Positions 1,622-50,283 of a DNA stretch of 64,000 bases are shown here, one piece after another. Where the stretch lies: the IMG/VR virus record IMGVR_UViG_3300042402_007287, one strand, 5' to 3'. Below the pieces are notes generated by a model. It was given only the letters and a program-made list of their open reading frames with translations, did not search any database and was not told where the DNA came from. The translations under genes were made by a program, and so were the position numbers. Origin of the DNA: a virus (lineage: Duplodnaviria; Heunggongvirae; Uroviricota; Caudoviricetes). Numbering within the stretch: position 1 is the first letter of the stretch; every line of letters begins with the position of its first letter.

Positions 1622-1760
1622 AAATTTTTTTTGCGCAACTTATGGTATTGTCCCCCCCAAACCGACGTTTTGACATATAGTAAGGGGGGATACGGGGGGG
1701 AGGGGGGGTATACCCCCTCCATATGGGGGGGATGAGGGGACCTTTTGTCAGGGGATAAGT

Positions 1761-1769
1761 TGTGGATAA
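1761..1769 (-). promoter_or_regulatory. perfect DnaA box (TTATCCACA on the minus strand)
   Basis: tgtggataa on the + strand, inside the G/C-homopolymer intergenic island. Confidence 0.35.
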
Positions 1770-1821
1770 CTATCCCCCCCTCCCATGGTTATTCACATGG
1801 GGGTGGGGATAATATTATTTG

Positions 1822-2295
1822 TTAGTTCTCGGTACTATCGATATCTTTCTTCTTCTTCCATTCGGGGACCTCCGTGTATTCGGGGAGTGGTACGGAGCTT
1901 GGGGATATTATCCATGTACCAACTTCGAACTTGCGGGACTTGGGTATCTTCATGTCTTGGGGAACGGCGGGGCTCTTTTGAACTTTGTCTATGAGAATTT
2001 GGATATCTTGGACCACTTCTCTTGGGGGTTGTCCCTGAGTGAAGAACGTGGATAGGTATGGGGACCAATCGAACCCCCGCATCTCGATGTAGAATTTAAC
2101 GGTCCAATCTTTTTCTTTGGCTAACTCCCATGGGTCGAGTACTATGTCGAGGAAGATAAGGCTATACTTATTTATTTCCTCGGGTAGTTTAACATCTTTA
2201 ATCCACGGGTAGGTCCTCATGAGTATTTTCTTTAATACCCTGAAATGATATAACTCATTTATTTCTTCGTGGGTCACATGTTGGAAGTCAGCCAT
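1822..2295 (-). CDS. hypothetical protein carrying a YPWIKDVKL motif (paralog family)
   Basis: 157-aa ORF. RTYPWIKDVKLPEE matches KYPWIKDIKL in 7382..7666. Confidence 0.45.
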   Translation of the reverse strand: MADFQHVTHEEINELYHFRVLKKILMRTYPWIKDVKLPEEINKYSLIFLDIVLDPWELAKEKDWTVKFYIEMRGFDWSPYLSTFFTQGQPPREVVQDIQILIDKVQKSPAVPQDMKIPKSRKFEVGTWIISPSSVPLPEYTEVPEWKKKKDIDSTEN

Positions 2296-2335
2296 TAGAT
2301 TTTTTTATTACAATAAATAGTTGTAGTTTTGAGTT

Positions 2336-2734
2336 ATGAAACTTACCACTCGGACCAAGGGTCTATCTATGAAAAAGCGTCGTCAGATTGTTGACCTCAC
2401 CGTTGAATGGATGAAGGAGAACGTGGGGAGAAAGGTGTCTAAGGAAAGGACCTTTAAGTATGCGGTCCGTAAGCTTGGGGATAAGTTCACCCCCGCCTAT
2501 GGTATGTATTGCCCTGAGCGCAATACCATGTATGTGTTTCATAACTACTGCCCCACCGTGAAGTGGATTATCCGCTGCGTCCTTCATGAATATACCCACT
2601 ACCTTCAGAACCTCAGGTACTATACCCATAACCTTGAAGTGTATGGTTATATGAAACACCCTCAGGAAAAACATGCTAGAAACATGGAGGACCTATATCA
2701 GTGGGTGTGGGATGATATATCCCCCTTGCTGTGA
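2336..2734 (+). CDS. HExxH motif protein, putative Zn-metallopeptidase-like; 132 aa
   Basis: VLHEYTHYLQ. Same length and similar HE[YW]xH[YE]xQ core as 16213..16611. Confidence 0.45.
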   Translation: MKLTTRTKGLSMKKRRQIVDLTVEWMKENVGRKVSKERTFKYAVRKLGDKFTPAYGMYCPERNTMYVFHNYCPTVKWIIRCVLHEYTHYLQNLRYYTHNLEVYGYMKHPQEKHARNMEDLYQWVWDDISPLL

Positions 2735-3006
2735 TATTCATATACCTTTTCTTGCGCCCACACCATTAAATCCTTGGGGGATATATCATCCCCGCCCCAT
2801 ACTTTTACTCCCTCCACCTTCGCATCCACACATCTCCATCTCGTGGGCATGACAGGTTTGTTGGTCCACCCCGCCTTCGGTCTCTCATAATATAACACAC
2901 CGAGAGACACCTCCTCCTTGAGAAGAATCTCCACCGCAACCCTATCTTCCGTGATGGGGGTGATGTTCGCTTTTAACTCTTTGAATAAATCCATATTATG
3001 GAACAT
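2698..3006 (-). CDS. hypothetical protein
   Basis: 102-aa ORF convergent with 2336..2734. Confidence 0.35.
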   Translation of the reverse strand: MFHNMDLFKELKANITPITEDRVAVEILLKEEVSLGVLYYERPKAGWTNKPVMPTRWRCVDAKVEGVKVWGGDDISPKDLMVWAQEKVYEYHSKGDISSHTH

Positions 3007-3055
3007 ATAAAATAACTATGAAATGTGAATAAAAACCTCTCTCTTGTGGGCGGGG

Positions 3056-3064
3056 TGTGGATAA
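3056..3064 (-). promoter_or_regulatory. second perfect DnaA box (TTATCCACA)
   Basis: tgtggataa on the + strand, at the start of a 690-bp ORF-free region. Confidence 0.35.
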
Positions 3065-3419
3065 ATTGTTTGGGGAAAAGTTGGAATTGTCAAAAAGTCA
3101 GTCGAGCGTTAGCCACGGCACAATCCCCTCGACACACTTTCCCCCACTTTTCCCCACCACTGTCTCCCACATTTTACCACCACTATTGGTCATGCAGATA
3201 GTGAAAACCCCACTTTTTCCCCTCTGACGCTATCAGGAAGACCAGTTTTTTACTATGTATATTTTCCAGCAAAAAAAGTAATAAGTAGTACATAGCGGGG
3301 GGAGTGAGTGTAACGAACCTTTAGTAGTGTTTTATCCCCTTCAACGAGAGAGACAATTTGTCTCCCCCAATGTATGGACATGTAGTATATGGTGGTAATT
3401 TGTGGGACAAGTTATACGA

Positions 3420-3560
3420 TATTTCATCATATCGTGTGAATACACGATTGTCTATAATATCGTTTCATTAGACGATACTATGGTCATGTAAGTCAACTTA
3501 TAGCTTGACTCGAAGAGTGGTTTTGTAAAGTTATAACTTGACCACTATACCACCATCTCA
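3420..3560. repeat. cluster of short palindromes/hairpins
   Basis: Includes cgatatttcatcatatcg, cgtgtgaatacacg, acgattgtctataatatcgt and atcgtttcattagacgat. Also aagtcaacttatagcttgactc and the perfect palindrome aagttataactt. Confidence 0.5.
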
Positions 3561-3633
3561 TTTGTCCCCTCCTTTAAGCGGGGGATATATTAGGTGGGGG
3601 GAGAAGATTATACAACAAGGGAGAGAATGTAGG

Positions 3634-3706
3634 GACTTCCGAACAAAGTGAGGAATGTGTTTGTCCCGAAATGAACGAACTTGGTGGATAATCTTATCTA
3701 ATTAGG
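3634..3706. repeat. conserved intergenic element, copy A. A hairpin GGGAC...GTCCC is followed by ...ggataatctta..taattag.
   Basis: About 75 percent identical to 5786..5866. Both copies abut the stop codon of a minus-strand gene. Confidence 0.55.
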
Positions 3707-8682: not shown

Positions 8683-9057
8683 TTAAAGTCTATTTAAACT
8701 TTCATCATAAGCTGTGGGTGAAGGTAAACCACTATATTCACACGTGAGGTCTTCCCGTTTCTTTTGTAGTTCTTTTTTTACATCTTCAGGGAAATATACT
8801 CCGTTAGATTCCATGTCAGCAATAAGGTTCTGAAGTGCAGAGTATTGATTGATTCTCATGTTGGCTTCGTCATCATTTTTTACGGGAGTATCGAATAATT
8901 TACCAATATATTTTATCATGTTTGTCCTTGGACTATTATCAGGACCAATTTCAGGATTTTTATCCATCTTTATGAATTCTTTGATAACAGTTCCCATGAA
9001 AACGAGAAACAAAGTTGAAACAATACTGGATAATATAATGATGTCTAAATTTTCCAT
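8683..9057 (-). CDS. N-terminally membrane-anchored protein
   Basis: N-terminal segment IIILSSIVSTLFLVFMGTVI. Confidence 0.45.
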   Translation of the reverse strand: MENLDIIILSSIVSTLFLVFMGTVIKEFIKMDKNPEIGPDNSPRTNMIKYIGKLFDTPVKNDDEANMRINQYSALQNLIADMESNGVYFPEDVKKELQKKREDLTCEYSGLPSPTAYDESLNRL

Positions 9058-9620: not shown

Positions 9621-9666
9621 ATCCTTGTTTGGTACAAAGATATTAAAATAAAACCAATTTATCAAA

Positions 9667-12455: not shown

Positions 12456-13661
12456 TTATACAAATACTGATGGAATTTCTTTCCAAGAGGTTGTGAACTT
12501 TTGAGACATGAACTCTTGTCTCATTTCCCATTCTTTTTCTACGTTTGCTGGTGGTTGAACTATTTGTATCGAACTTGAAAAGAGTGTCCCCTGTTCTATT
12601 GATTCAGGCATTAGGTCATTGAATATGATTCCACACTTTTTATATTTTTTTCCTGTTTTGAACATCTTCTTCAAATGTGGATAGATTTGAGACCATATCT
12701 CATTTTCATCTCTTGTCTGTTTTTGGAATAGTATTTGTTTACTGGTGTAGTGTTTTTCATCTTTATGTTTATTACCCGCAATGAATATGGTTGCTCTGTT
12801 TGGAGATATTCCATTCTCGTGCAACTTTTTAACACCACTTTTTACGTATGAATACATAGCCTCGGCTATTTGGTCAAACGTATCAATATCTTTTCCAAAT
12901 GACCTTGTTGACGCCACGTTTCTTTTCAATTTTGGAACAGGTTGAACGGGATGGCAATACATTCCAAGTAATTCCATTTTTGTTTTCAACCCATTTACTG
13001 TCATCATCTTTCTCACAAGACCATCGTTCAACATTACGAATTGTCCAACACTATCCACACCAATCATTTTCAACTTCTTATACCATTTTCTCCCGATTCC
13101 CCAAACCTCATCAGCTGATATTGTGTAAAGTAAATTCCTTACATTTTGTAAAGTCCAATAAGAACATACTCCGTTATATGAGTCTTGTTTTTTGGCAATG
13201 TATGAAGTTAGTTTTGCCAATGTTTTATTTGGACCAACACCGATTGAAACAGGAATTCCAACCAATCTTTTCACTTCGTTTTTAATAAGTAAAAGTCTAT
13301 CCATCAATTCATCATCAGGTATGTTTGAGAAGTCAACAAAACATTCATCAATAGAATATACTTCAACTTCGGTAGCATACTTTTTTATTATTGTCATGAC
13401 TCTGTCAGACATATCACCGTAAAGATTATAGTTGGAGGAGTATACACAAAACCTGTGCTCTTCCATGAAATCTTTTTTTAGGAAGAATGGTTCACCCATT
13501 TTAATTCCAAGGTCTTTCGCTTCTTGAGAACGAGCGATAACACAACCATCGTTGTTTGATAACACAACTGTTGGTCGTCCGATTGAAATGGGATTAAAAA
13601 CTCTTTCACAACTAACATAGAAGTTGTTACAATCGACTATCCCTATCTTCTTCTTTTCCAT
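12456..13661 (-). CDS. umuC: Y-family (translesion) DNA polymerase, UmuC-like
   Basis: MEKKKIGIVDCNNFYVSCERVFNP...VVLSNNDGCVIARSQEAKDLGIKMGEPFF closely matches the UmuC N-terminus. Confidence 0.9.
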   Translation of the reverse strand: MEKKKIGIVDCNNFYVSCERVFNPISIGRPTVVLSNNDGCVIARSQEAKDLGIKMGEPFFLKKDFMEEHRFCVYSSNYNLYGDMSDRVMTIIKKYATEVEVYSIDECFVDFSNIPDDELMDRLLLIKNEVKRLVGIPVSIGVGPNKTLAKLTSYIAKKQDSYNGVCSYWTLQNVRNLLYTISADEVWGIGRKWYKKLKMIGVDSVGQFVMLNDGLVRKMMTVNGLKTKMELLGMYCHPVQPVPKLKRNVASTRSFGKDIDTFDQIAEAMYSYVKSGVKKLHENGISPNRATIFIAGNKHKDEKHYTSKQILFQKQTRDENEIWSQIYPHLKKMFKTGKKYKKCGIIFNDLMPESIEQGTLFSSSIQIVQPPANVEKEWEMRQEFMSQKFTTSWKEIPSVFV

Positions 13662-22242: not shown

Positions 22243-22299
22243 GATGTTTGTGTTTTGTTACACAAAGATAGACTATTCCATCAAACCAACAAATTTTTT

Positions 22300-26436: not shown

Positions 26437-26514
26437 AAAACAATTTTATCCACAAAGATAAAAAATTTTAACGAACTAAACAAAAAATTGTTTTTTCAAT
26501 ATATTTAAGAGTGT

Positions 26515-26908: not shown

Positions 26909-28117
26909 GTGAATTGTAAAAAATATACTCTAACCAACACGGGTAACACTCTTGTAACATTTAGTTATAGAAAATGTGATTCAAGCGAATTTGAAAACCA
27001 AGTCCCACTCTTACCAAATCAAACAAAAAATGTTTGGGCAATTTACGATACCTTCTCTTTAAGTAATTTCTACGAAAATTCTTTAGTAATTAGTGAAGAA
27101 TGGTTTCAAAGGGATTTGAATAATTGTCCTACATGTAATGTAATAAATACCCCTTGTAATGGTCAAGTGGTAACAAGTAATGGTATACAAATAACTGGTT
27201 ATACTTTTAACTCAGTATGTTCAACTAATACATTTACCTATGGTCCAAACAACTACTCTTGTCAAGAAATCCCAATTACAATAAAACCTGGACCAGGAAC
27301 TGGTGTCGTGTCTTTCGGGTCAGGTGCAACTGTTACTTTTAGATTTAGTCAAGCCATCTCATCATTGATGTTCAATTCAGGTGTTTGGAATGGTGATGCT
27401 TTCCCGAATGGAGATAGAGTTACCATAACTTTAAACAATTCTCAAACTCCAATAATAACTCAATGTACAGGTTGTAATTTCAATATCAACAACGGTACAA
27501 TCACAGCGGTAAATACTGATGGATTAGCAAGATTTTTAGTTCAATCAACTTCCCCTTTCACAGAAATAACATTTTCATCTCCACCAAGTATACAATATGG
27601 CGGTGTAAGAATTAGTCTTTGTGAACTTACAAATGCAAACATTCCGACACCAACTCCTACAAGCCAAGCAACCGCAACTCCAACCCCGACTAGAACATCT
27701 ACACCAACCCCGTCAGTCACCGCAACACAAACTCAAACTCCTTCTGTTACCCCAACGATTGGACCTACACCTTCGGTAACTCCCACTAATACTACAACTC
27801 CCACAGTGACCCCAACAAATACTACGACACCTACAAATACCGCTACTCCGCCAACGACTCCACCCGTCACTCCAACAAATACAGGTACTCCAGCCGAAAC
27901 ACCGACAGTAACTCCAACTCCATCAATAACACCTTCTACGTGTGTTGGTTATGTATTGGATGCTGGTGGTGGAAGTGCATCAATAGAATGGTTCGATTGT
28001 GGTGGTAGTTATTTTACACAAACATTTAGTGGACAGCTCACCATATGTACGGATGGAAGTGGATATACAGTTACTATTGGTGCTGTTACGGTTGTTTCAG
28101 GACCATACCCTTGTTAA
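26909..28117 (+). CDS. Cys-containing N-terminal domain plus a long Thr/Pro-rich mucin-like linker and a small C-terminal domain
   Basis: About 110 residues of TPTPT/TPSVTPT repeats. Confidence 0.6.
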   Translation: MNCKKYTLTNTGNTLVTFSYRKCDSSEFENQVPLLPNQTKNVWAIYDTFSLSNFYENSLVISEEWFQRDLNNCPTCNVINTPCNGQVVTSNGIQITGYTFNSVCSTNTFTYGPNNYSCQEIPITIKPGPGTGVVSFGSGATVTFRFSQAISSLMFNSGVWNGDAFPNGDRVTITLNNSQTPIITQCTGCNFNINNGTITAVNTDGLARFLVQSTSPFTEITFSSPPSIQYGGVRISLCELTNANIPTPTPTSQATATPTPTRTSTPTPSVTATQTQTPSVTPTIGPTPSVTPTNTTTPTVTPTNTTTPTNTATPPTTPPVTPTNTGTPAETPTVTPTPSITPSTCVGYVLDAGGGSASIEWFDCGGSYFTQTFSGQLTICTDGSGYTVTIGAVTVVSGPYPC

Positions 28118-28120
28118 ATA

Positions 28121-28150
28121 AAAAACCCCAACCGTAGAGACGGTCAGGGT
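28121..28150 (-). terminator. minus-strand rho-independent terminator with no minus-strand CDS upstream of it
   Basis: In minus-strand RNA, ccctgaccgt-ctct-acggttgggg forms a full 10-bp stem with two G-U pairs, followed by a T-run. On the + strand the stem has two mismatches. Confidence 0.45.
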
Positions 28151-29440
28151 TAGGCGAAAACTCTGAGAATACAAGTCTTGACAAGAGTCTTTAGGAGGAT
28201 TATTTGGTTCCCTCTGTTTCCACTTCCTTTTGAGAAGTAACTCTCAGTCACGGTCAATTAGATTAACCAATCCTGAAGTTGTCTGCAACTCTCCCATTAC
28301 TCATCACTCTTCGACCCTGCCGAGCCAATTCATCCTTGCGGGATTAGAGAACTTTCGTGAAAATCGTGTCGGGCTTGGGACCCTTCACGGCAATGAACAT
28401 CTCATTACTATGTAGTGACCTGTCACACACAACTGACGAGCACTTTTCCTTGATTTAATTAATGTTTTGGACATTGCATAGACCAAAGTTGGTTTACGGA
28501 TTATGAAGGTAGTGGCCCGTCTGAAGCCAAGTCATCTTTTGAACGACCCGATACTAAACTACCCTCTGAAGTGTCCCCACCTCCATACTTCGAGTCAACT
28601 TCATAACAGACCTCTTGGTAGAGCATTTGCTAAGGTTCTATCAGCACCACCTGTAATAAAACTTACCTTTCGGTTTTTAAGTCAACTTTGATATTGAATG
28701 ACGCAATTGTGACAGTGGATACTACCACTTCTTACATCGATTCTACAGGTGATTCTTGTTGGTCTTCCGACCTCAACCAAACGACCCGAATCGCTTGGTC
28801 ACCACACCACGTTCCCTACAGTGTTACCCTCGGTACTAAAGGTGTTGTGATATCCTGCTTGCCTACTCGAGCTCCCTTTTGGAAACCGCGGGAACCACCA
28901 AACCAGGGGTTCCTACTTTATACTACTTTCGTAGTTTATTTAACGACCATAGGCGGCCAATATCTTGAATCAAAGAACTATCAAAGATTGAAGGAAACCG
29001 AAATATCTTTACTCCGAACATTCGGAAACGATTTCCCTCAATTGTCTTACAAAGATAAGAAGTCATTTTCAGACTGTCAAATTTTATAAGAGTTTTTTAT
29101 AAAAAATTTACAGGCTTTTTGTACCCTTTTGTACATCATGACCAACATATTCCTACATTGGTGGTTACATTTTCGTCGTTGGTTAATTACTCCTGACTTA
29201 TAGTAACTATACCCTCCCCGCTCTGATACCGCGAATCAAGACGGCGTCTTTGGGATTCATATACCGTGGGGTTCCACCACAGTCTTCACCTGTATTGTTG
29301 CGACGCCTTGGAATTGAACCAAGTTCAATTGGCTTATGAGACCAATGAGATACCTTACCTCCCGCTCGCCCTATAATAAAACTACTCAAGTCCCCGTGTC
29401 ACCATCCAAGTCATGCTCTGGTTGAACCTTGAGTAGAAAT
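28151..29440 (-). ncRNA. candidate large structured non-coding RNA, about 1.3 kb, GC-elevated and ORF-poor; the strand call rests on the terminator
   Basis: GC is roughly 45-50 percent by eye against about 33 percent around it. Only short, implausible ORFs. Many local hairpins. No recognisable rRNA, RNase P, tmRNA or tRNA signature. Confidence 0.3.
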
Positions 29441-29467
29441 ATGTTAAAGAACTTCTTTTGATAATAA

Positions 29468-29522
29468 AGTCCCACAAAGATAAGACATTTTTTTGAAACA
29501 CCAAACTTGTGGGACTTTTTTT
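29468..29522. terminator. hairpin agtcccacaa...ttgtgggact (10-bp stem, 29-nt loop) plus T7
   Basis: A and T runs on both sides. Lies between the GC island and the Nudix gene. Confidence 0.4.
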
Positions 29523-29756
29523 GAGACTTTTTCTGTCTCGTATGATTCAGGTTTTTTTACCAACCTCTCGGTTGAAAACTTGAATCTGTGGGGATGTTCA
29601 CCCTTTCGGGTAAGAACATATAAATATACCGAAAAGTGAAAAAAGTAACCTTTGGTGAAAATATTTTTTCAAAGATTTTTTTCTTTTTCTTCACGTAACT
29701 CAAACCAAATTACAATACCTGTGAAAACTAAACCAACAATCATATACCAAATCATA

Positions 29757-30167
29757 TCACATATTTTTTAAAAGATTGTATAGGTTCTCTCCAATTTTGG
29801 AAGGTGGCATTTCTTCGAGAGTATAATAACCACATTCAGTATGTTCTTCACCGTCAATCGCAATTGATAAATCAGGAATGAGTTTTTCAATTGGTTCTGT
29901 CTCAAAGACATGCATCTGACCCTTCAACTTCTTACCGTCTCTCGAATATCTTGGAATTACACCAACTTTGTTCAATGTTTCACTATCTATGTCAACAGCC
30001 ATTTCTTCAAAAAACTCTCTACGTGCTGTTTGGATGGGAGACTCGCCTTCCTCCATTGTACCTCCAGGAATTGACCAAACACCTGGATAATCTACTTTAG
30101 AACTTCTTTTACAAAATAAAATTTTCTTTTTGTGTTTTACCACTACACCCGCATAACTTTTTTTCAT
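29757..30167 (-). CDS. Nudix hydrolase
   Basis: Nudix box GGTMEEGESPIQTARREFFEEMAV (GX5EX7REUXEEXGU). Confidence 0.85.
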   Translation of the reverse strand: MKKSYAGVVVKHKKKILFCKRSSKVDYPGVWSIPGGTMEEGESPIQTARREFFEEMAVDIDSETLNKVGVIPRYSRDGKKLKGQMHVFETEPIEKLIPDLSIAIDGEEHTECGYYTLEEMPPSKIGENLYNLLKNM

Positions 30168-40186: not shown

Positions 40187-41034
40187 ATAAAATAAGAAAT
40201 ATAATCACCAATCTAATATTGGAGGCACAGAGATATAAATTTTCTGATGATGTGAGAGATAGAATGAAATCCGTCACAGAAAAATTATGGTCTGATAGAA
40301 ATAAACCTTATAAAGGAAAAGAACTAGTTGATGTCATTCCTTTTAAATTAGCCGATGGAGTAGAGGGTTTAGCTAGAGTCGTGGTAAACCCAAGACTACC
40401 CTACATGGGTCAGATGGGTACAAAACCTCAAAAGTCAGTCGACCCGGCAGATATTGTAATCGAAGTAAATCCAAAACACTACGAGTCAAAAAAAACACTT
40501 TATCTTACACTATATCATGAAATGATACATGCCAGTGACCCAACACAATCTCATTTGTTTAGTCCCAAATATATGGTGACTTACAATGAGAAATCAGATA
40601 AAGATTATTGGGGTCATCCAATAGAATTTTTTGCAATTTCAAATGAATTTTTGGAGGGTTTGGTTCTCGAATTTGAAAGAAGAGTTAAAAGAAACAGAAA
40701 AATTGAAAACCTACAATTTTTAGAAAAATCATTAAAAAATATAATCAATTATTTTGCCAAGGGTGACCCACTATCTAAACTCTCGAAGGATATTTTATTT
40801 AGAATAAATGATGAACATTTGGGAAATGACCTTATCAGAGTTTTCAAAAATTTAACCACCGATAATCCTCAACTTGCAGATTTTATGTCTGAGAGAGGAG
40901 GAGAAGAACCTTACTACATTTATTATGTTGAATTGATTAAAAAGTATAACCCAGAAATTTGGAAAAAATTTCTGTCGATGTTATACCAAACTGGTTTCGA
41001 AATAAGAGATTTAATTCAAAAGACCGAAATCTAA
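40183..41034 (+). CDS. HExxH motif protein ([13 protein letters not shown]); start set to the ATG at 40183 ([16 protein letters not shown])
   Basis: The track start at 40162 overlaps the upstream gene. ATG 40183 forms an ATGA junction. Confidence 0.45.
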
Positions 41035-44000
41035 ATAAGTCCTCTTTCCTTGGCTATTGTCTCTAACTCATCAAGTTTTATTTCTTTAGATTCCAAAATC
41101 AAGGATTGTTCTTTAATGGCTTCTAAACAAACAGCTATTACTTCAGCATATTTTACCATGAAATATGCGTTCTCGGTGTTTTTCTTGAAAACCAATTCAG
41201 GTAATATATGACCTATTTCTTGGGCAATGAATCCAATATCATGTTTACCTGATTGGGATGTTTCATCATTTAATTTATTCCAATAGAATGAAACACCTCT
41301 CAATTTCAGGACTTTTTCTAGTGGGGATTGTATTTCTTTTACGTCCTTTTTTAATCTTAGGTCAGAACCAGTGGTACCTTGTGCACCTTGAGCACCTTGT
41401 AAACCATTTGGACCGGTTGCACCTTGTGCACCTTGTGGACCTTGACCACCTTGTGGTCCTTGGGCACCTTGACCCCCCTGAGGTCCTTGAGCTCCTGTGG
41501 CACCACCACCGCCTTGAGCACCTTGGCCTCCTTGCGGACCTTGAGCACCTTGAGCACCTTGGGCACCACCACCGCCTTGAGAACCTTGTCCTCCGGCGGT
41601 ACCCTGAGCCCCTGTGGGACCTTGAGAACCTTGTCCACCTATTGGACCTTTGGGACCTTGAGCTCCTTGAGCACCTTGAGCACCTCCAGGTCCTGTTGGA
41701 CCCTGAGCCCCTTGAGCTCCTCCTCCACCTTGGGAACCTTGACCTCCCGTAGGACCTTGAGCCCCTTGAGCACCACCAGGTCCTTGAGCTCCTTGAGCAC
41801 CTTGACCTCCCGTAGGACCTTGAGCCCCTTGAGCACCACCAGGTCCTTGAGCTCCTTGAGCACCTTGACCTCCCGTAGGACCCGTAGGTCCTTTGGGACC
41901 AATAGGACCAGGAACACCAGTTGCACCGTTTGCACCGATATGACCTTGTGGTCCCTGTGCACCTTGTCCTCCCTGAGCACCTTGTGCACCTTGACCCCCT
42001 TTAGGTCCTGTGATACCTGTAGGTCCAGTAGGTCCTTGCGCACCTTGTGCACCTTGACCTCCAGTTGTTCCTTGAAAACCTTGTGAACCGACGGGCCCTT
42101 GAGCACCTTGGGCACCTTGTCCACCACCTCCACCTTGAGCACCTTGTGAACCTGTGGCTCCTTGTGCTCCCTGAGCACCTTGTCCGCCACCAGGACCAGT
42201 TGCACCTTGAGCTCCTTGTGAACCTTGAGCTCCTTGTGCACCCTGTCCTCCTTGTGAACCTTGACTACCAACAGCTCCTTGAGCACCTTGAGCACCTTGA
42301 GCTCCGGCGACGCCCTGAGAACCTTGAGCTCCTGTGGCACCTTGTGCACCTTGGGAACCTTGAGCACCTTGCCCACCTTGTGAACCTTGTGCACCTACGG
42401 GACCTGTCGTTCCTTGTGCTCCTTGTGCACCCTGTCCTCCACCTCCACCTTGAGCACCTTGGGCTCCAACTATACCTTGAGCTCCTTGTGCACCTTGTCC
42501 TCCTCCGGCACCTTGAGAACCTTGGGCTCCTGTGGGTCCTTGAGAACCCTGAGCACCTTGACCTCCTGTAGCTCCTTGAGCTCCTTGGGCACCTGTTGTA
42601 CCTTGAGCCCCTTGGGCACCTTGTCCTCCTTGGGAACCTTGAGCACCTTGGGCTCCTGTTGAACCTTGGGCTCCTTGAGCTCCTGTTCCACCTTGTGAAC
42701 CTTGTGAACCTTGGGCTCCTGTTGAACCTTGAGCACCTTGGGCTCCTGTTCCACCTTGGGAACCTTGGGCTCCTGTTGAACCTTGAGCACCTTGGGCTCC
42801 TTGAGCACCTTGTGGACCTTTAGGACCTTGGGCACCTTGAGCACCTTGTCCTCCCTGAGCTCCTTGAGCTCCTTGACCACCTTGGGACCCTTGCGCACCT
42901 GTTAAACCTTGTGAACCTTGTGCTCCTTGAGCACCCTGTCCACCTTGGGAACCTTGAGCTCCTGTAGGACCGAGAGCCCCTTGTGCTCCTTGAGCACCTT
43001 GCCCACCTTGAGCTCCTTGAGCTCCTGTGAGACCGACAGCCCCTTGAGCTCCTTGAGCCCCTTGTCCACCCTGAGCTCCTTGAGCACCTGTAGGACCAAC
43101 TGCGCCTTGAGCACCTTGAGCACCTTGTCCCCCTTGGGAACCTTGGGCTCCTGTTGTACCTTGGGAACCTTGAGCACCTTGGGCACCTTGTCCACCTTGT
43201 GCCCCTTGAGCACCTGTGAGACCTTTAGCCCCTTGTGAACCTTGAGCGCCCTGTCCACCCTGTGCTCCTTGCGAACCTTGAGCACCTGTTGAACCTTGGG
43301 CTCCTTGGGCTCCTTGACCACCTTGAGAACCTTGAGCTCCTGTGGGTCCCAAAGTTCCTTGTGAACCCTGAGCACCTTGTCCTCCTTGAGCTCCTTGTGA
43401 ACCCTGAGCACCTGTAAAACCTTGTGAGCCTTGTGAACCTTGACCACCTTGTGAACCTTGTGCACCTGTAGGTCCTTGTGACCCTTGAGCACCTTGAGCA
43501 CCTTGTCCCCCTTGAGCACCCTGAGAACCTTGGGCACCTGTTGAACCTTGGGTACCCTGTGCTCCTTGACCCCCTTGAGCTCCTTGAGCACCAGTAGAAC
43601 CTTGTGAACCTTGAGCACCCGTTGGACCTTGAGGTAATTTAGCTCCGACCCATCCTGTTGAATTTATTAAATCTCCCGAGGCATTTGCAAGTTTGTTAGT
43701 AAGTGTTATTGACCCCCCACTGACTCTGAGGTTTGGATAGGAAGTACTTATTCTTGCTAAAGTGGAAGTTAAAGTTCCAAATTTCAACTCACCATTCTCC
43801 ATATACCAGTTAGTGGCAGTTCCTCCAGAATCTATAAGTTGAAAATTGGCTCCATCAGGATAAACAATTATATTTTCATCACCTGAAAATTCAGTACATT
43901 TTCTAACCTCCGTGACAGTTCCTGTCCTATTTATCTTCCAAACCGTTGTATCAACAGAATCCTTTAGATATAAATTAGGTAATAATGGAGAGAAAGTAAT

Positions 44001-44138
44001 AACATTAGTATAACCTGCATCTGTATAGACTACACAACCTCCACTTAGTGATGGACACGGTGTATAAATAGTCTGTGATGCCACAGAATTACACGCATTT
44101 AGATAACTCGTCCCTGAATATACTACGTATGATGCCAT
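41031..44138 (-). CDS. collagen-like (Gly-X-Y) fibre protein, 1035 aa, with a C-terminal intramolecular-chaperone auto-processing (peptidase S74) domain
   Basis: About 730 residues of GAQGSQG-type triplets. The C-terminus [12 protein letters not shown]...FYWN... matches the S74 S|DxRLKxNI cleavage motif of phage tail fibres. Confidence 0.85.
41753..41878. repeat. perfect 63-nt tandem duplication inside collagen-like gene 1
   Basis: The unit encodes a repeated 21-aa [21 protein letters not shown] block. Confidence 0.6.
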
Positions 44139-47122
44139 TAGTTCACTACTTGTTTTAATCTATTTATTCTATCTTTCACTGACAATATTCTTTTTTGATT
44201 CTCTTTAATTGATGCGAAGGCTAAACTAACCAAGAGTCCATAATCCATAGATTTGTATCCATCAGTTGGGTCAGTGTCAACAATCTCAGGAAATACTTTT
44301 TCTACATCTTGAGCTATGAATCCATAAGTATCACCTGTGAACGCTTCTTTAGCATTCAGGTGCTTATGAAATTTAATTTTAGGATGTTCATGGTCCCAAG
44401 TAAATTTAACACCTTGGATTTGTTTCAGACGGGTGAGAGGTTCTTTGAATTCAACTATATTATCTTTTAATCTTTTATCTGACTTAGCGCCTTGTGCTCC
44501 CTGAGCACCTGTGGCACCTGTTGGGCCTGTTGGGCCTGTATTCCCCTTGAAACCTGTTGGGCCTGTTGGGCCTGTGGCACCACCAACACCTGTCGGACCT
44601 TGAGCCCCCTGTGGTCCTGGTACACCTGGAGCACCCTGAGTACTTCCAGCAAATCCTGTGGCTCCTTGAGCACCTGTGGCTCCTGTTCCACCAGGAGCAC
44701 CTGTAGGACCCGTGGCTCCTGTAGCTCCTTGGGACCCTTGTGCACCTGTGTTCCCTCCACCTCCAGTCAATCCTTGTGGACCTTGGGCTCCTTGCGGACC
44801 AGGACCGGGTCCTGTAGAACCTTGAGCACCTTGAGGTCCTGTAGAACCTTGTGCTCCCGAAGTAGCACTTTGAGAACCTTGAGCACCTTGAGCACCTTGA
44901 ACTCCAGGTGCTCCCTGAGCCCCTTGATTAGCACCCTGTGCACCTTGTGCTCCTTGAGCTCCTTGAACTCCAGGTGCCCCTTGAGCGCCTTGGTTAGCAC
45001 CCTGTGCTCCTTGACTTCCCTGAGTACCTTGACCTCCCTGAGCACCTTGAGCACCTTGTGTCGTATTATTTGGTCCAATTGCACCTTGTGCACCTTGTGG
45101 ACCTGTAGCACCTTGTGCACCCTGATTGGCTCCTTGTGCTCCCTGAGAACCTTGAGCACCTTGAGCTCCTTGAGCCCCCTGTGCTCCCTGATTAGCACCT
45201 TGTGCACCCTGTGAACCCTGAGCACCTTGTGGACCTGTCGCACCTTGGGCTCCTTGATTAGCACCTTGAGCACCTTGAGCACCTTGAGCTCCTGTAGCAC
45301 CCGTAGCACCTTGTGCTCCTTGATTAGCACCTTGGGCTCCTTGTGCTCCTGTAGCTCCTTGTGCACCGACTGCTCCTGTAGCACCGGCACTTCCACCTTG
45401 AGCACCTTGTGCCCCTTGGGGACCTGTAGCACCCTGAGCTCCTGCCTGTCCTGTTATACCACTTTGGGCACCTTGAGCTCCTTGAGGACCTGTTGCACCT
45501 TGCGCACCCGTGGCACCTGCACTTCCACCTTGGGCTCCTTGAGCACCTTGAGGTCCTTTTGGACCTTGAGCGCCCTGAGCACCTGGACTGGCACCCTGGG
45601 CTCCCTGAGCACCTTGAGCACCTTGAGGACCTGTAGCACCCTGAGCTCCTGTATTTGCACCTTGAGCCCCCTGAGCACCTTGAGCACCTTGAGGACCTGT
45701 GGCGCCTTGAGCACCTTGTACACCCCCTTGGGCTCCTGTCGCCCCCTGAGCACCTTGAGGTCCTGTGGCGCCTTGAGCACCTGTATTTGCACCTTGGGCT
45801 CCTTGAGCACCTTGAGCTCCCGCTGCTCCTGTTGCACCCTGAGCACCTTGTACTCCTCCTTGAGCTCCTATTGCTCCTTGTGCACCTTGTGGTCCTGTGG
45901 CACCTTGAGCTCCTTGGGTACCTCCTTGAGCACCTGTAGAACCTTGTGCACCTTGAGCACCTGTTGCACCTTGGGCACCTTGAAGTCCACCTTGTAATCC
46001 CTGAGCCCCTTGAGCTCCTTGAGGTCCTGTTGCACCTTGTGCTCCTTGTACTCCTCCTTGTGCACCTTGTGCTCCTTGTACCCCCGTAGGACCTGTAGCC
46101 CCTTGAGCACCTTGTACTCCTCCTTGAGCACCTTGAGCTCCTTGAGCACCTTGACCACCTTGAGCACCTTGAGCTCCTGTGTTTGCCCCTTGGGCCCCTT
46201 GAGCACCTTGTGGTCCTGTAGTACCTATAGCACCTTGAGCACCTTGTACTCCTCCTTGAGCACCTGTAGCACCTTGTGTACCCTGAGTACCCTGAGCACC
46301 TTGTGCACCAGTATTTCCTCCCTGAGCACCTTGTGCACCTTGAGTTCCCTGTGCACCTTGAGCACCTTGGGCTCCGGTATTGGCTCCTTGAGCTCCCTGA
46401 GCACCTAAATCACCTGTGGCACCGACGGCACCTTGAGCACCTTGAACTCCTCCTGTAGCACCTACCGCTCCTTGGGCTCCTTGGGGACCTGTCGCACCCT
46501 GAGCACCTGTGTTTGCACCTTGAGCACCTTGAGCACCTTGAGCTCCCTGACCACCCTGAGCACCCTGAGCTCCAACTGTTCCTCCTTGAGCACCTTGAGC
46601 TCCTTGGTTACCTTGAGCTCCTGTGGCTCCTTGAGCACCCGTATTTCCACCCTGAGCTCCTGTGGCACCCTGAGCTCCTTGAGACCCAATTGTACCTTGA
46701 GCACCTTGTGTTGTGTTTGCCGCACCTTGTGCGCCTGTTGCTCCTTGGGCACCTGTAGCACCTTGAGCTCCTGTATTTGCACCTTGAGCTCCTTGAGCTC
46801 CCTGACCACCTTGGGCTCCCTGAGCACCTTGAGCTCCCTGAGCACCAGCGATACCGGCAGTTGGTCCGACCCAAACACCTCCAGAACCTATGAATTGTGA
46901 GGCGTTGAAATATAGTGACTGTGCGGAAGCCCCTGAGGTTGTGACACCATTGTCTGAACCTTTTGTACCAATTACAAAATTATTTGAAATTGACCCAGCA
47001 GACAGACTTATTGCGTCAGTTAAAACGTTGAATTGTAATTTATTAGTTCCATCATCAAAAATAAAATGAGGGTCAGTGTTCCACGTTCTACCGGTAGGAT
47101 ATATAATTACATTAGATGGCAT
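44138..47122 (-). CDS. collagen-like fibre protein, 994 aa, with a C-terminal S74 chaperone domain
   Basis: C-terminus [18 protein letters not shown]...[10 protein letters not shown]. Joined to the flanking genes by TAATG overlaps. Confidence 0.85.
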
Positions 47123-50100
47123 TATCTCAATTTAATTTCTAATTCGTCTACTTGTTTAGTTATCTCTTCAATAAATACTTGTTGTTCTTTTATACCTTCA
47201 ACTACAACAGAATTTAATTTCTTGTAGTCAATGTAATAATATCCATCAGGACCGATTCCAACAGCTTCAGGGAAATGAATTCTTACGTTTTGTGCAATTA
47301 GACCTATCTGATGTAATCTTCCCATCTGAGCAAAATATTCATACTCTTCTTTGGTACCCCAATTTTTTTCGTTCCAATCATACTCAACAGTTTCTATTTC
47401 CAATATTTTTATAAGAGAATCTTTCAAGGTTTCAATACCTGTTTTAAGTTTCACGTCAGAATAAGCACAAGCCTGCTGATAGGTACCATTACCACAAGTG
47501 GCGTTTAATGAATAACATGCACTATTCCATTGTTCCCAGTTATAAGTATTCCAATCACAAGTACCATTTGAACAATTCGTAGCATCGAAATATTTGTTTT
47601 GTGTGGCTGTGTAAGCAGTTTGAGTGTATGGATAAACGTTGGGTACAGTGATATTACAAACACCTACACATGGGTTTCTACTTCCTGTAAGAGCAATAAT
47701 ACTATTCAGTTGACATGTTACACCTCCAGGTCCAACAGCTCCTTGGGAACCTTGAGCACCCTGCCCTCCTGTTGCACCTAATGAGCCTTGTGTACCTTGA
47801 CCACCTGTAGGACCTTGTGGTCCTGTGGCACCTGTAGGTCCAGGTGCTCCTGTTGGTCCCTGAGGACCTTGTGGTCCAGTTGGACCAGGACCCCCTGTAG
47901 GACCTGTAGCACCCTGAGGTCCCTTTGGACCTTGTGGTCCTTGAGGTCCTGTGGCACCTCCTCCTCCTTGAGCACCTTGTGCCCCGCCAGGTCCTGTAGG
48001 ACCACCTGGACCTTGTGGACCTTGGGCTCCTGTGGCTCCAGTTGCTCCTTGAGGTCCTACAGCCCCTTGTGAGCCTGTGGCACCTCCCGCACCTTGGGGT
48101 CCAATAGCACCCGTGGCACCTGTATTTCCTTGAGGTCCTGTAGGACCCGTTGCTCCCTGTGCACCAGGATGTCCTGTATTACCTGACGGACCTTGTGGGC
48201 CAGTTGGACCGACCGCTCCTTGAGCACCAGGATGCCCCGTAGCTCCCGGTACGCCGGTCGGACCGGTATTTCCTTGAGCTCCTTGAGGTCCTTGGGAACC
48301 TTGTGAACCCTGAGCACCCGGACTACCTCCTGGTCCTGTAGCACCTTGTGCACCTGGATGTCCTGTGAAACCTGGTGCCCCCTCGTTACCAGTACCTCCA
48401 CCAGCACCTTGAGCACCAGGATGGCCAGTAGCACCTGTAGGTCCTTGAGGTCCTTTGGGTCCTATGGCACCTTGAGCTCCAGGATGTCCTGTACCACCCC
48501 CTTGTCCTTGAGACCCAGTAGGTCCACCTGCACCTTGTGCCCCCGGATGACCTGTCTGACCTTGAGCACCCGTTGCTCCCGCTGAACCTTGCGGTCCTTG
48601 CGCTCCAGGATGACCTGTGAATCCATTAGGTCCTTTTGGTCCGGCCGCACCCTGACTACCTTGGGCACCAGGATGTCCTGTAGCCCCTTGTGAGCCTTGT
48701 GGTCCTGTGGCACCTTGTGGGCCTTGAGCACCAGTGTGTCCTGTGGCTCCTTGTGAACCTTGTGGTCCTATCGCTCCTTGGGGACCTTGGGCACCTGGAT
48801 GACCTGTTCCACCACCCGCCCCTTGCGAACCTTGTGGTCCTGTGGCACCCTGAGCCCCTGTGTTACCTGTACCACCTGCGGGTCCTTGAGCTCCCTGAGG
48901 TCCTGTAGCCCCTTTCGGTCCAACCGCCCCTTGAGCACCTGTGTTACCTCCAGGCCCTGTTGGTCCTGTAGCACCTTGTGCACCAGAATGACCCGTATTA
49001 CCCGCAGGTCCTTGAGCTCCTTGTGGTCCTGTAGCCCCTGTCGGTCCTACCCCACCTTGGGCACCTTGAGCACCTGAAAGTCCTGTCGGACCAGTTGCTC
49101 CTTGTGGCCCCACAGCACCCTGAGCCCCCGTATTACCTGTGTCTCCTTTTGGTCCCACAGCACCTTGTGGTCCTGCAGGTCCTGTAGCTCCTGTATCACC
49201 TGTTGGGCCTGTGGTACCTGTGGCACCTTGTGGTCCCACATTACCTGTATTTCCTGTAGGTCCTTGTGGTCCCTTTGGACCAATCGCACCTGTGGGCCCT
49301 ACCGCACCAACATTACCTGTGAAACCTTGTGGACCAGGATTTCCTGTGGCTCCTTGTGCCCCTGTGTTTCCAGTATTCCCTTGTGCTCCTTTGGGTCCTT
49401 GAGCTCCTATAGCACCGGTGGGTCCAACGGCTCCTTGAGACCCTGTGACACCCGTAGGTCCAGGATTTCCTGTAGCACCCTGAGCGCCAGGATGTCCTGT
49501 ATTTCCTGTGGGTCCTGTTCCACCTGTGTTTCCTGTTGCACCTTGTGCACCTGAAAATCCTTTTGGACCTTGAGCTCCTTGTGGTCCTTGAGCACCTTGT
49601 CCACCTGTTGGTCCTACAGGTCCTTGAGCACCTGTATTACCTGTGGGTCCTGTAACCCCAATCGCACCCTGTGCTCCTGTATTACCAACGGCTCCCGTTG
49701 GTCCTTGTGGACCAGGGTGTCCACTTTGTCCTGTAGGTCCAGGGTTACCTGTATTACCTGGCGCACCTGCTGACCCTTGTGCTCCTGTGGCACCCTTGGG
49801 TCCATTGTTACCTTGAGCACCCGTATTTCCTTGTGCTCCGGCAGTTCCTTGAGCACCCTTAGGCCCAAATGTACCTTGAGCACCTTGAGGTCCTGTGGCG
49901 CCTGCAGCACCAATAGCACCTTGTGCTCCTGTGTTACCTATTGCACCCGTAGGACCTGTATTTCCGTTGAATCCTTTTGCACCCTGAGAACCAGCTATAC
50001 CTGTTGTGGGTCCAATCCAATTGTTTGTGGCATTTATTACCTGAACCCCTCCTATTGCAAGGTAATTTCCTACAAAAATAGTGTTTACTGAAACTGTAGA

Positions 50101-50283
50101 ATTTGCAGGGTCTACTGTCATCAAATTTGTATCACCAACAGTATTACCGCTGAATTTAATTTTACCTGAAGGTGTAACCGTCAGAATAACCTGACCCGTG
50201 GTACCCTCATAACTTATAAATGGAGTACGGTTAGCAGTCCTCTCAGTGAAATTACTCGGAACAATTAAAATATTTTTTCCCAT
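47122..50283 (-). CDS. collagen-like fibre protein, 1053 aa, with a Cys-rich domain of about 100 aa before the C-terminal S74 chaperone domain
   Basis: ...GVTCQLNS...[45 protein letters not shown]... Confidence 0.85.

Follow-up and report, generated by a model that had tools for sequence, protein, structure and literature searches.

RNA content of the island

The DNA analysed here is a 64,000-nucleotide (nt) stretch from an uncultured tailed phage (IMG/VR record IMGVR_UViG_3300042402_007287), which is called the window below. The subject is an island at positions 28121..29440, which the initial annotation had singled out as free of plausible open reading frames (ORFs), elevated in guanine and cytosine (GC), and a candidate for a large structured noncoding RNA read from the minus strand. 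As listed in Table 1, the island very probably consists of three noncoding RNA genes, all on the minus strand. From 5' to 3', these are a noncanonical transfer RNA (tRNA)-like gene with the anticodon CAU, a structured RNA of 185 nt, and, as the chief component, a GOLLD RNA with a promoter and a terminator of its own.

The Rfam scan, which had been recommended as a check, identified the largest of the three. A match to RF02032 (GOLLD) was found on the minus strand at 28566..28160 with 314.7 bits and E = 3e-89, compared to a gathering score of 150. All of the model was aligned (positions 1-416 of 416), so the match is not truncated, and its score was similar to those of other members of the family. 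The proposal of a large structured RNA of the GOLLD, ROOL or HEARO kind was thus supported, and GOLLD is the name it receives. In the whole 64-kb window, GOLLD and tRNA alone reached the gathering scores; ROOL, HEARO, OLE, RNase P, transfer-messenger RNA (tmRNA), group I and II introns, and ribosomal RNA (rRNA) stayed below them. When the threshold was relaxed to E<=1 over 27900..29800, nothing of substance was found beyond GOLLD and tRNA. The initial annotation had seen by eye no signature of rRNA, RNase P, tmRNA, introns or tRNA, which holds for all but the last, since a match to the tRNA family (RF00005) lies at 29369..29299 on the minus strand, with 33.1 bits against a gathering score of 29.

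The composition of the island was as had been claimed. Its GC content was 0.428, compared to 0.364 for the whole window and to a background of 0.339±0.034 from which the collagen-repeat tail-fibre genes at 40.5-50.7 kb were left out. This places the island at z = 2.6, in the top 2.5% of 1320-nt segments. The rise is genuine, though moderate, and GC is equal or higher in the Pro/Thr linker of the neighbouring ORF, in a second island at 1.6-3.6 kb and in the tail-fibre genes. The longest ORF in the island encodes 133 amino acids from a TTG start (28688..29089, plus strand) and lies antisense to the GOLLD RNA; the others do not exceed 62 amino acids, and none of the island ORFs matched Pfam. No minus-strand coding sequence was present between 28121 and the NUDIX gene (29757..30167), in agreement with the earlier reading. 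The public gene call on the JGI contig Ga0335047_0000120 (64,119 bp), which is 100% identical over the 6.4 kb compared, also leaves the island interval empty.

Table 1. Features of the island and its borders
Feature	Position	Strand	Basis or description
tRNA-like gene, anticodon CAU, noncanonical	29369..29299	-	Rfam tRNA match
185-nt structured RNA	29293..29110	-	Covariation, no Rfam family; P1 (29293..29288 with 29115..29110) closes a multi-helix junction
GOLLD, ~920 nt	about 29045..28124	-	RF02032 match, promoter, terminator
Predicted 5' leader of GOLLD transcript	28961..29045	-	Leader motif in most homologues; 5' end predicted from promoter
GOLLD 5' domain	28567..28960	-	Homologous to IMG/VR copies, LR745206 and LR756502; env-38 residues 1-420
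GOLLD 3' domain, universally conserved half	28160..28566	-	RF02032; aligns to env-38 residues ~421-833
Variable A/U-rich unpaired linker within 3' domain	28435..28504	-	Low posterior probability, unpaired consensus
Predicted Bacteroidota-type promoter motif TTTG-N20-TATCTTTG	29081..29050	-	In front of GOLLD
Intrinsic terminator ending GOLLD	28118..28151	-	12-bp stem 28151..28124, two G-U, loop UCUC, U-run
Long hairpin downstream of NUDIX gene, likely its terminator	29466..29518	-	-19.2 kcal/mol, z -5.6

Domains, homologues and covariation of the GOLLD RNA

The Rfam GOLLD model covers the conserved 3' half of the RNA only. Homologues were gathered for the upstream part. A megablast search with 20 kb around the island against GenBank phages gave no match, and a distant blastn search with the island returned two GOLLD loci of huge phages and one tRNA-like match, with no others. 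The two loci, LR745206 and LR756502 from huge uncultured phages, carry the GOLLD 3' domain at the corresponding place and align with the window from about 29040 to the terminator. Furthermore, a 17-nt pattern taken from the upstream (5') part retrieved 23 IMG/VR loci, all of which contain the Rfam 3' domain. These loci are full-length homologues, with 54-68% identity to the window over about 1 kb. In all, more than 30 IMG/VR copies proved homologous to the 5' domain. The GOLLD core measures ~800 nt, compared to about 920 nt for the predicted transcript. Within the leader, a hairpin at 29041..28988 (UUGAGGGAAA...UUUCCUUCAA) is common to the window and one homologous locus, L038, and the motif GUUCUUUGA (28978..28970) is conserved in most homologues.

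Covariation, the second check that had been recommended, was present, including in the part of GOLLD beyond the Rfam model. RNAalifold on 21 nonredundant copies gave 109 pairs in the 5' domain, 74 of them with compensatory changes. In this domain, 97.5% of the alignment cells were paired, compared to 78.7±0.5% in column shuffles, and none of the 500 shuffles reached the observed value; when the partners were slid by 1-3 columns, the proportion fell to 37-43%. The part of GOLLD outside the Rfam model is therefore supported by its covariation. Moreover, the 922-nt RNA 29045..28124 folded with -292 kcal/mol (z -5.9) in the minus-strand reading, compared to -231 kcal/mol (z -1.6) in the plus-strand reading.

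The structure of one GOLLD RNA is available for comparison. GOLLD env-38 has 833 nt, with a 5' domain (1-420), a 3' domain (421-833) and a disordered linker (497-538), and by cryo-electron microscopy it forms a closed 14-mer cage with D7 symmetry, PDB 9MEE (PMC12286853). GOLLD RNAs are phage-encoded and lie near tRNA islands, and env-38 was first found downstream of a Met-tRNA (PMC12286853). The window RNA and env-38 are 63% identical over 777 aligned positions that span both domains (about 28960..28160). They share the two-domain layout, the variable internal linker, the encoding by a phage and the position just downstream of a tRNA-Met-type gene. The linker of the window RNA, which aligns to RF02032 positions ~63-136, would correspond to the disordered linker in the cage interior of env-38, judging from the alignment; no tRNA insertion was found in it.

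The nucleotides that hold the env-38 subunits together were largely kept. Nine of the 10 inter-subunit bridges of the 14-mer are identical or compensated in the window: B1, B2, B3, B5, B8 and B9 are identical, and B6, B7 and B10 carry compensatory changes (U669-A682 to G-C, A547-U617 to G-C, and U646-A688 to C-G). The contact loops GAAA, GGAA, CAAAAG, GCAA and GGCA are retained as well. Since the contact nucleotides are nearly all conserved or compensated, assembly of the window RNA into a cage is supported. The window RNA differs from env-38 in an extra 5' leader of ~85 nt with its own hairpin, upstream of the start of the env-38 construct, and in a P11a-like hairpin shortened to CCGAAAGG. 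It also ends at an intrinsic terminator instead of abutting a tRNA, and its cage is a prediction.

ROOL offers a comparison outside the family. It is phage-encoded, occurs near tRNA islands and forms an 8-mer cage; the window RNA resembles it in size class, in its phage and tRNA-island context and, by analogy, in a possible RNA-only cage (PMC12286853). However, the window RNA has the sequence and secondary structure of GOLLD, and both ROOL and HEARO fell below the gathering threshold. Furthermore, no IsrB-type gene lies beside it, as HEARO (omega RNA) would require.

The surroundings of GOLLD in the related loci resembled those in the window. A tRNA-Met gene or a tmRNA gene adjoins GOLLD in most of them. 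The relatives L011, L014 and L017 are syntenic and have a normal tRNA-Met between NUDIX and GOLLD, and in many relatives an initiator-like tRNA-Met (CGCGGGG...CCCGCA) starts 2-9 nt past the GOLLD 3' end. Loci with a tmRNA or tRNA-Met context include L004, L005, L018, L019, L021, L022, L024, L027, L031 and L036. Several relatives carry phage tmRNA genes 130-430 nt upstream of GOLLD, with tag peptides such as ANVDYSTEYYAVAA. The window GOLLD is a further member of a known family, in a context typical of that family.

The tRNA-like gene and the 185-nt RNA

The tRNA-like gene sits 250 nt upstream of GOLLD. Its D, anticodon and T arms are regular, its acceptor stem has six pairs and a bulge, and position 8 is G, not U. 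ARAGORN at default settings found no tRNA in the window and reported this gene, with two mismatches in the acceptor stem, only when the threshold was lowered to 80%. The gene thus lacks the 7-bp acceptor stem, the U8 and the default detection of a canonical tRNA. Its homologue in L038 (about 8970..9040) carries compensatory changes in the anticodon and T stems. A second counterpart, in Aeromonas phage Akh-2 (MK318083.1, 64520..64589), is annotated as tRNA-Pseudo-CAT; it shares the anticodon CAU and nearly identical D and anticodon arms, and differs from the window gene in its host group and in the sequence of the acceptor stem. Between these phages, whose hosts are apparently unrelated, the D and anticodon arms (GGGAGGUAAGGUAUCUC..GGUCUCAUAAGCC) are nearly the same, and the inner acceptor stem is mismatched in all three copies, that is, in the window, L038 and Akh-2. 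This pattern suggests that the gene encodes a special, conserved tRNA-like RNA and is not a product of random decay.

The first sign of the 185-nt RNA was a spacer in the array of 25 tRNAs at locus L008, which matched it at 72%. This RNA became visible because the island was compared with relatives, which was the sole route that revealed it; folding 29100..29445 as a single unit gave no signal (z -1.1). Two independent patterns then yielded 35 further copies on IMG/VR viral contigs. The 27 distinct sequences define 36 consensus pairs in eight helices, 22 of which show compensatory changes. The cells were paired in 98.0% of cases, compared to 87.2±0.6% in shuffles (0/500) and 36-46% in slid controls, and the window copy forms all 36 consensus pairs. 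A U-run (29106..29101) follows the closing stem. Among the variant copies, three carry an insertion of ~30 nt in the P7 hairpin (L041, 7253..7463; L042, 1550..1760; L056, 431..641), and two are divergent with compensatory changes in P4 (L047 and L059).

Identities for this RNA were sought in databases. Rfam 15 at E<=10 gave only a spurious 19-nt match and none of relevance, and at gathering scores no match was found at its position in 13 homologous loci. A motif scan of genomes from 185,579 species returned one chance AT-rich match (Oceanirhabdus) and no homologue. Signal recognition particle RNA, 6S, RNase P, Y-RNA and tmRNA were rejected because no Rfam match was obtained; for 6S, which is rod-shaped, the multi-helix junction fold speaks against the identity as well. 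A pseudoknot between the P2 loop (UGUAACC) and GGUUA was also considered and dropped, as the variants in the window and in L038 do not co-vary.

The surroundings of the 185-nt RNA were consistent among the copies. In 24 of the 36 copies, a same-strand tRNA-Thr(UGU) gene of a phage tRNA array ends 0-5 nt before it, and the next tRNA is usually located 5-272 nt further on. Fifteen of the 36 copies have a GOLLD within a few kilobases on their own strand; conversely, among the 25 GOLLD loci obtained by homology to GOLLD (L001-L025), only one has the 185-nt RNA nearby. Since the RNA is fused elsewhere to the 3' end of tRNA-Thr(UGU), it is probably cut out by RNase Z and RNase P. With slightly less than even confidence, it may belong to an undescribed class of phage structured RNA that is built into tRNA arrays and freed by tRNA-processing enzymes. 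Of the parts of the island, it alone is possibly new, as judged against Rfam and not against the 8,495 IMG/VR candidates of PMC10690425. RNA C and RNA D, small stable RNAs of the phage T4 tRNA cluster whose roles are unknown (PMC3014915), offer the closest parallel, as they are small non-tRNA RNAs inside a phage tRNA cluster and apparently come from the same precursors as the tRNAs. However, the 185-nt RNA is larger, has a well-supported multi-helix fold and is tied to tRNA-Thr(UGU), and the analogy claims no sequence relationship. The 185-nt RNA could be a further part of the translation-related RNA toolkit of phages, often alongside GOLLD and tmRNA. We also speculate that the palindrome UAAUUA in a conserved hairpin loop could mediate RNA-RNA pairing between copies.

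Predicted transcription, proposed assembly and phage context

The earlier minus-strand proposal had started from a hairpin of 10 bp at 28121..28150 that was complete in minus-strand RNA only. Its strand-specific reading proved right, and its coordinates were a few bases off: on the minus strand, 12 uninterrupted pairs (28151..28124) are followed by UUUUAUUU, whereas on the plus strand the stem is interrupted and the T-run absent. The hairpin energies were -18.2 kcal/mol (z -3.7) for the minus strand and -13.7 kcal/mol (z -1.8) for the plus strand. The terminator begins 9 nt past the last GOLLD model position (28160).

At the other end of GOLLD, a predicted promoter was found. TTTG and TAnnTTTG are taken by us as the Bacteroidota promoter consensus, and the motif TTTG-N18-21-TAnnTTTG occurs 18 times in the window, for the most part before genes on the minus strand; shuffles contain 2.8±1.7 copies. 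The copy in front of GOLLD lies at the same place in most homologous GOLLD loci, and from it we infer a start near 29045. A second copy (29505..29475) is located in the loop and 3' arm of the long hairpin downstream of the NUDIX gene and faces the tRNA-like gene and the 185-nt RNA; this hairpin and its promoter motif are conserved in L038. Further copies on the minus strand lie at 26484..26453, 22293..22263 and 9666..9635. The promoter motifs suggest that the host of the phage belongs to the Bacteroidota.

The initial annotation had proposed one transcript spanning the island. Minus-strand RNA genes are indeed what the island holds; the single span gives way to three genes and two predicted promoters (29505..29475 and 29081..29050). 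Nevertheless, one transcript over ~29470..28124 (about 1.3 kb), with the three parts as domains or processing products, is the alternative that survives best, although we hold it to be rather unlikely. The three elements share the minus strand, no canonical hairpin-plus-U terminator separates them, the stem at 28151..28124 is the only clear terminator, and the tRNAs of relatives come within 0-9 nt of GOLLD and of the 185-nt RNA, a spacing that implies polycistronic precursors. On the other hand, a conserved promoter motif stands directly before GOLLD in the window and in most homologues, the 185-nt RNA and GOLLD are kilobases apart or alone in most loci, and the 185-nt RNA has a U-run after its closing stem. 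A single transcript as the sole form is therefore disfavoured because the internal promoter is conserved. Read-through and an internal promoter can coexist, so the single transcript is a refinement of the three-gene arrangement more than an exclusive rival.

It is far less probable, and indeed very unlikely, that the GOLLD copy is an inactive relic within a decaying tRNA island. The adjoining tRNA-like gene scores 33 bits only and its acceptor stem is defective, ARAGORN detected no other tRNA of this phage in the window, and one kissing loop of the cage, B4, is weakened. However, all 416 model positions of GOLLD are matched with a score like those of other members, the bridge motifs are intact or compensated in nine of 10 cases, neither the promoter nor the terminator is damaged, and the 36 pairs of the 185-nt RNA are all formed. 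L038 and the Aeromonas phage also conserve the odd tRNA-like sequence, with compensatory changes. Furthermore, the lineage is common, because another sample contains a contig of 99.56% identity and, in the assembly collection, 326 blocks index the identical NUDIX protein. As for a decayed or overlooked protein gene with incidental RNA-like features, for which the 133-amino-acid frame could speak, its probability is negligible, since the island has no Pfam match, the longest open frames in 22 homologous copies (65-139 amino acids) vary in strand and frame, substitutions track base-pairing rather than codons, and the interval matches an RNA family in full length.

If the island holds three RNA genes, as we prefer, GOLLD would be transcribed from its own promoter at about 29045 and ended by the intrinsic terminator at 28124. 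The RNA would then fold into the 5' domain (28960..28567) and the 3' domain (28566..28160) and, by analogy with env-38, would most likely self-assemble without protein into a closed 14-subunit RNA cage. On the env-38 plan, the caps would be made of 5' domains and the rings of 3' domains, with the variable linker directed to the interior. The upstream promoter would probably give one transcript of the tRNA-like RNA and the 185-nt RNA, which the enzymes of tRNA processing would then part. GOLLD is constantly accompanied by tRNA-Met, tmRNA and tRNA arrays, which suggests that its role is connected with translation or with the handling of tRNAs during infection.

Several points weigh against this reading. 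The B4 kissing loop, GGGAU:AUCCC with 5 bp in env-38, is down to about three pairs in the window, so cage assembly of the window RNA is not guaranteed. The env-38 sequence was taken from Supplementary Table 4 as an optical character recognition copy with 815 of the 833 nt, and its residues were re-anchored by local identity. Since the homologues were gathered by exact-match patterns, the pattern segments are invariant by construction and the sample is biased to close relatives; the shuffle control takes no account of shared ancestry. Moreover, promoters, start site and processing have been predicted from sequence motifs and context, and the mechanistic account of GOLLD stops at assembly.

Other features of the window were recorded. 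The window encodes phage tail fibres and phage-family proteins. On the plus strand, an ORF of 402 amino acids without a Pfam match (26909..28117) is convergent with the GOLLD terminator and ends 6 nt before it; a long linker rich in Pro and Thr (27600..27950, GC 0.48) precedes its tail, which is rich in Cys and Gly. At 41031..50283 on the minus strand, three consecutive ORFs of ~1000 amino acids reach a GC of 0.61, compared to about 0.34 in the rest of the window. The first matches PHROG tail-fibre families, and in the other two Pfam recognizes collagen triple-helix repeats together with a chaperone domain, Peptidase_S74; the Gly-X-Y repeats account for the high GC here. The gene at 12456..13661 (minus strand), labelled DNA polymerase by PHROGs, is, judged from its nearest matches in phages, a translesion polymerase of the Y family (UmuC-like), not a replicative one. 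A tblastn search with it for host clues gave 32-36% identity across many host groups and was uninformative on the host.

The second GC-elevated island, at 1630..3650, has a GC of 0.40-0.51, compared to about 0.30 in its flanks. Long runs of G and of C occur in it, as do three small ORFs, none with a Pfam match and one with an HEYTH motif. A 640-nt ORF-free stretch (3010..3650) shows iteron-like repeats (CCCCACTTTTCCCC) and their inverted partners. No match to this island was found in Rfam or in the phage database. Candidate explanations are an origin, a region for packaging or inserted foreign DNA.

GOLLD RNAs are among the largest and least understood RNAs of bacteria and phages, and their RNA-only 14-subunit cage was shown in 2025 (PMC12286853). 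The window copy adds little to the family as such. It is a clean case for study, with its own predicted promoter and terminator, in a phage of at least 64 kb without an ordinary tRNA array and in a lineage that recurs across metagenome samples. Across a freshwater phage lineage, the nucleotides of the cage contacts are retained or co-vary, which supports assembly as a selected property. In addition, the 185-nt RNA and the conserved tRNA-like (CAU) gene point to unexplored RNA genes in phage tRNA clusters.

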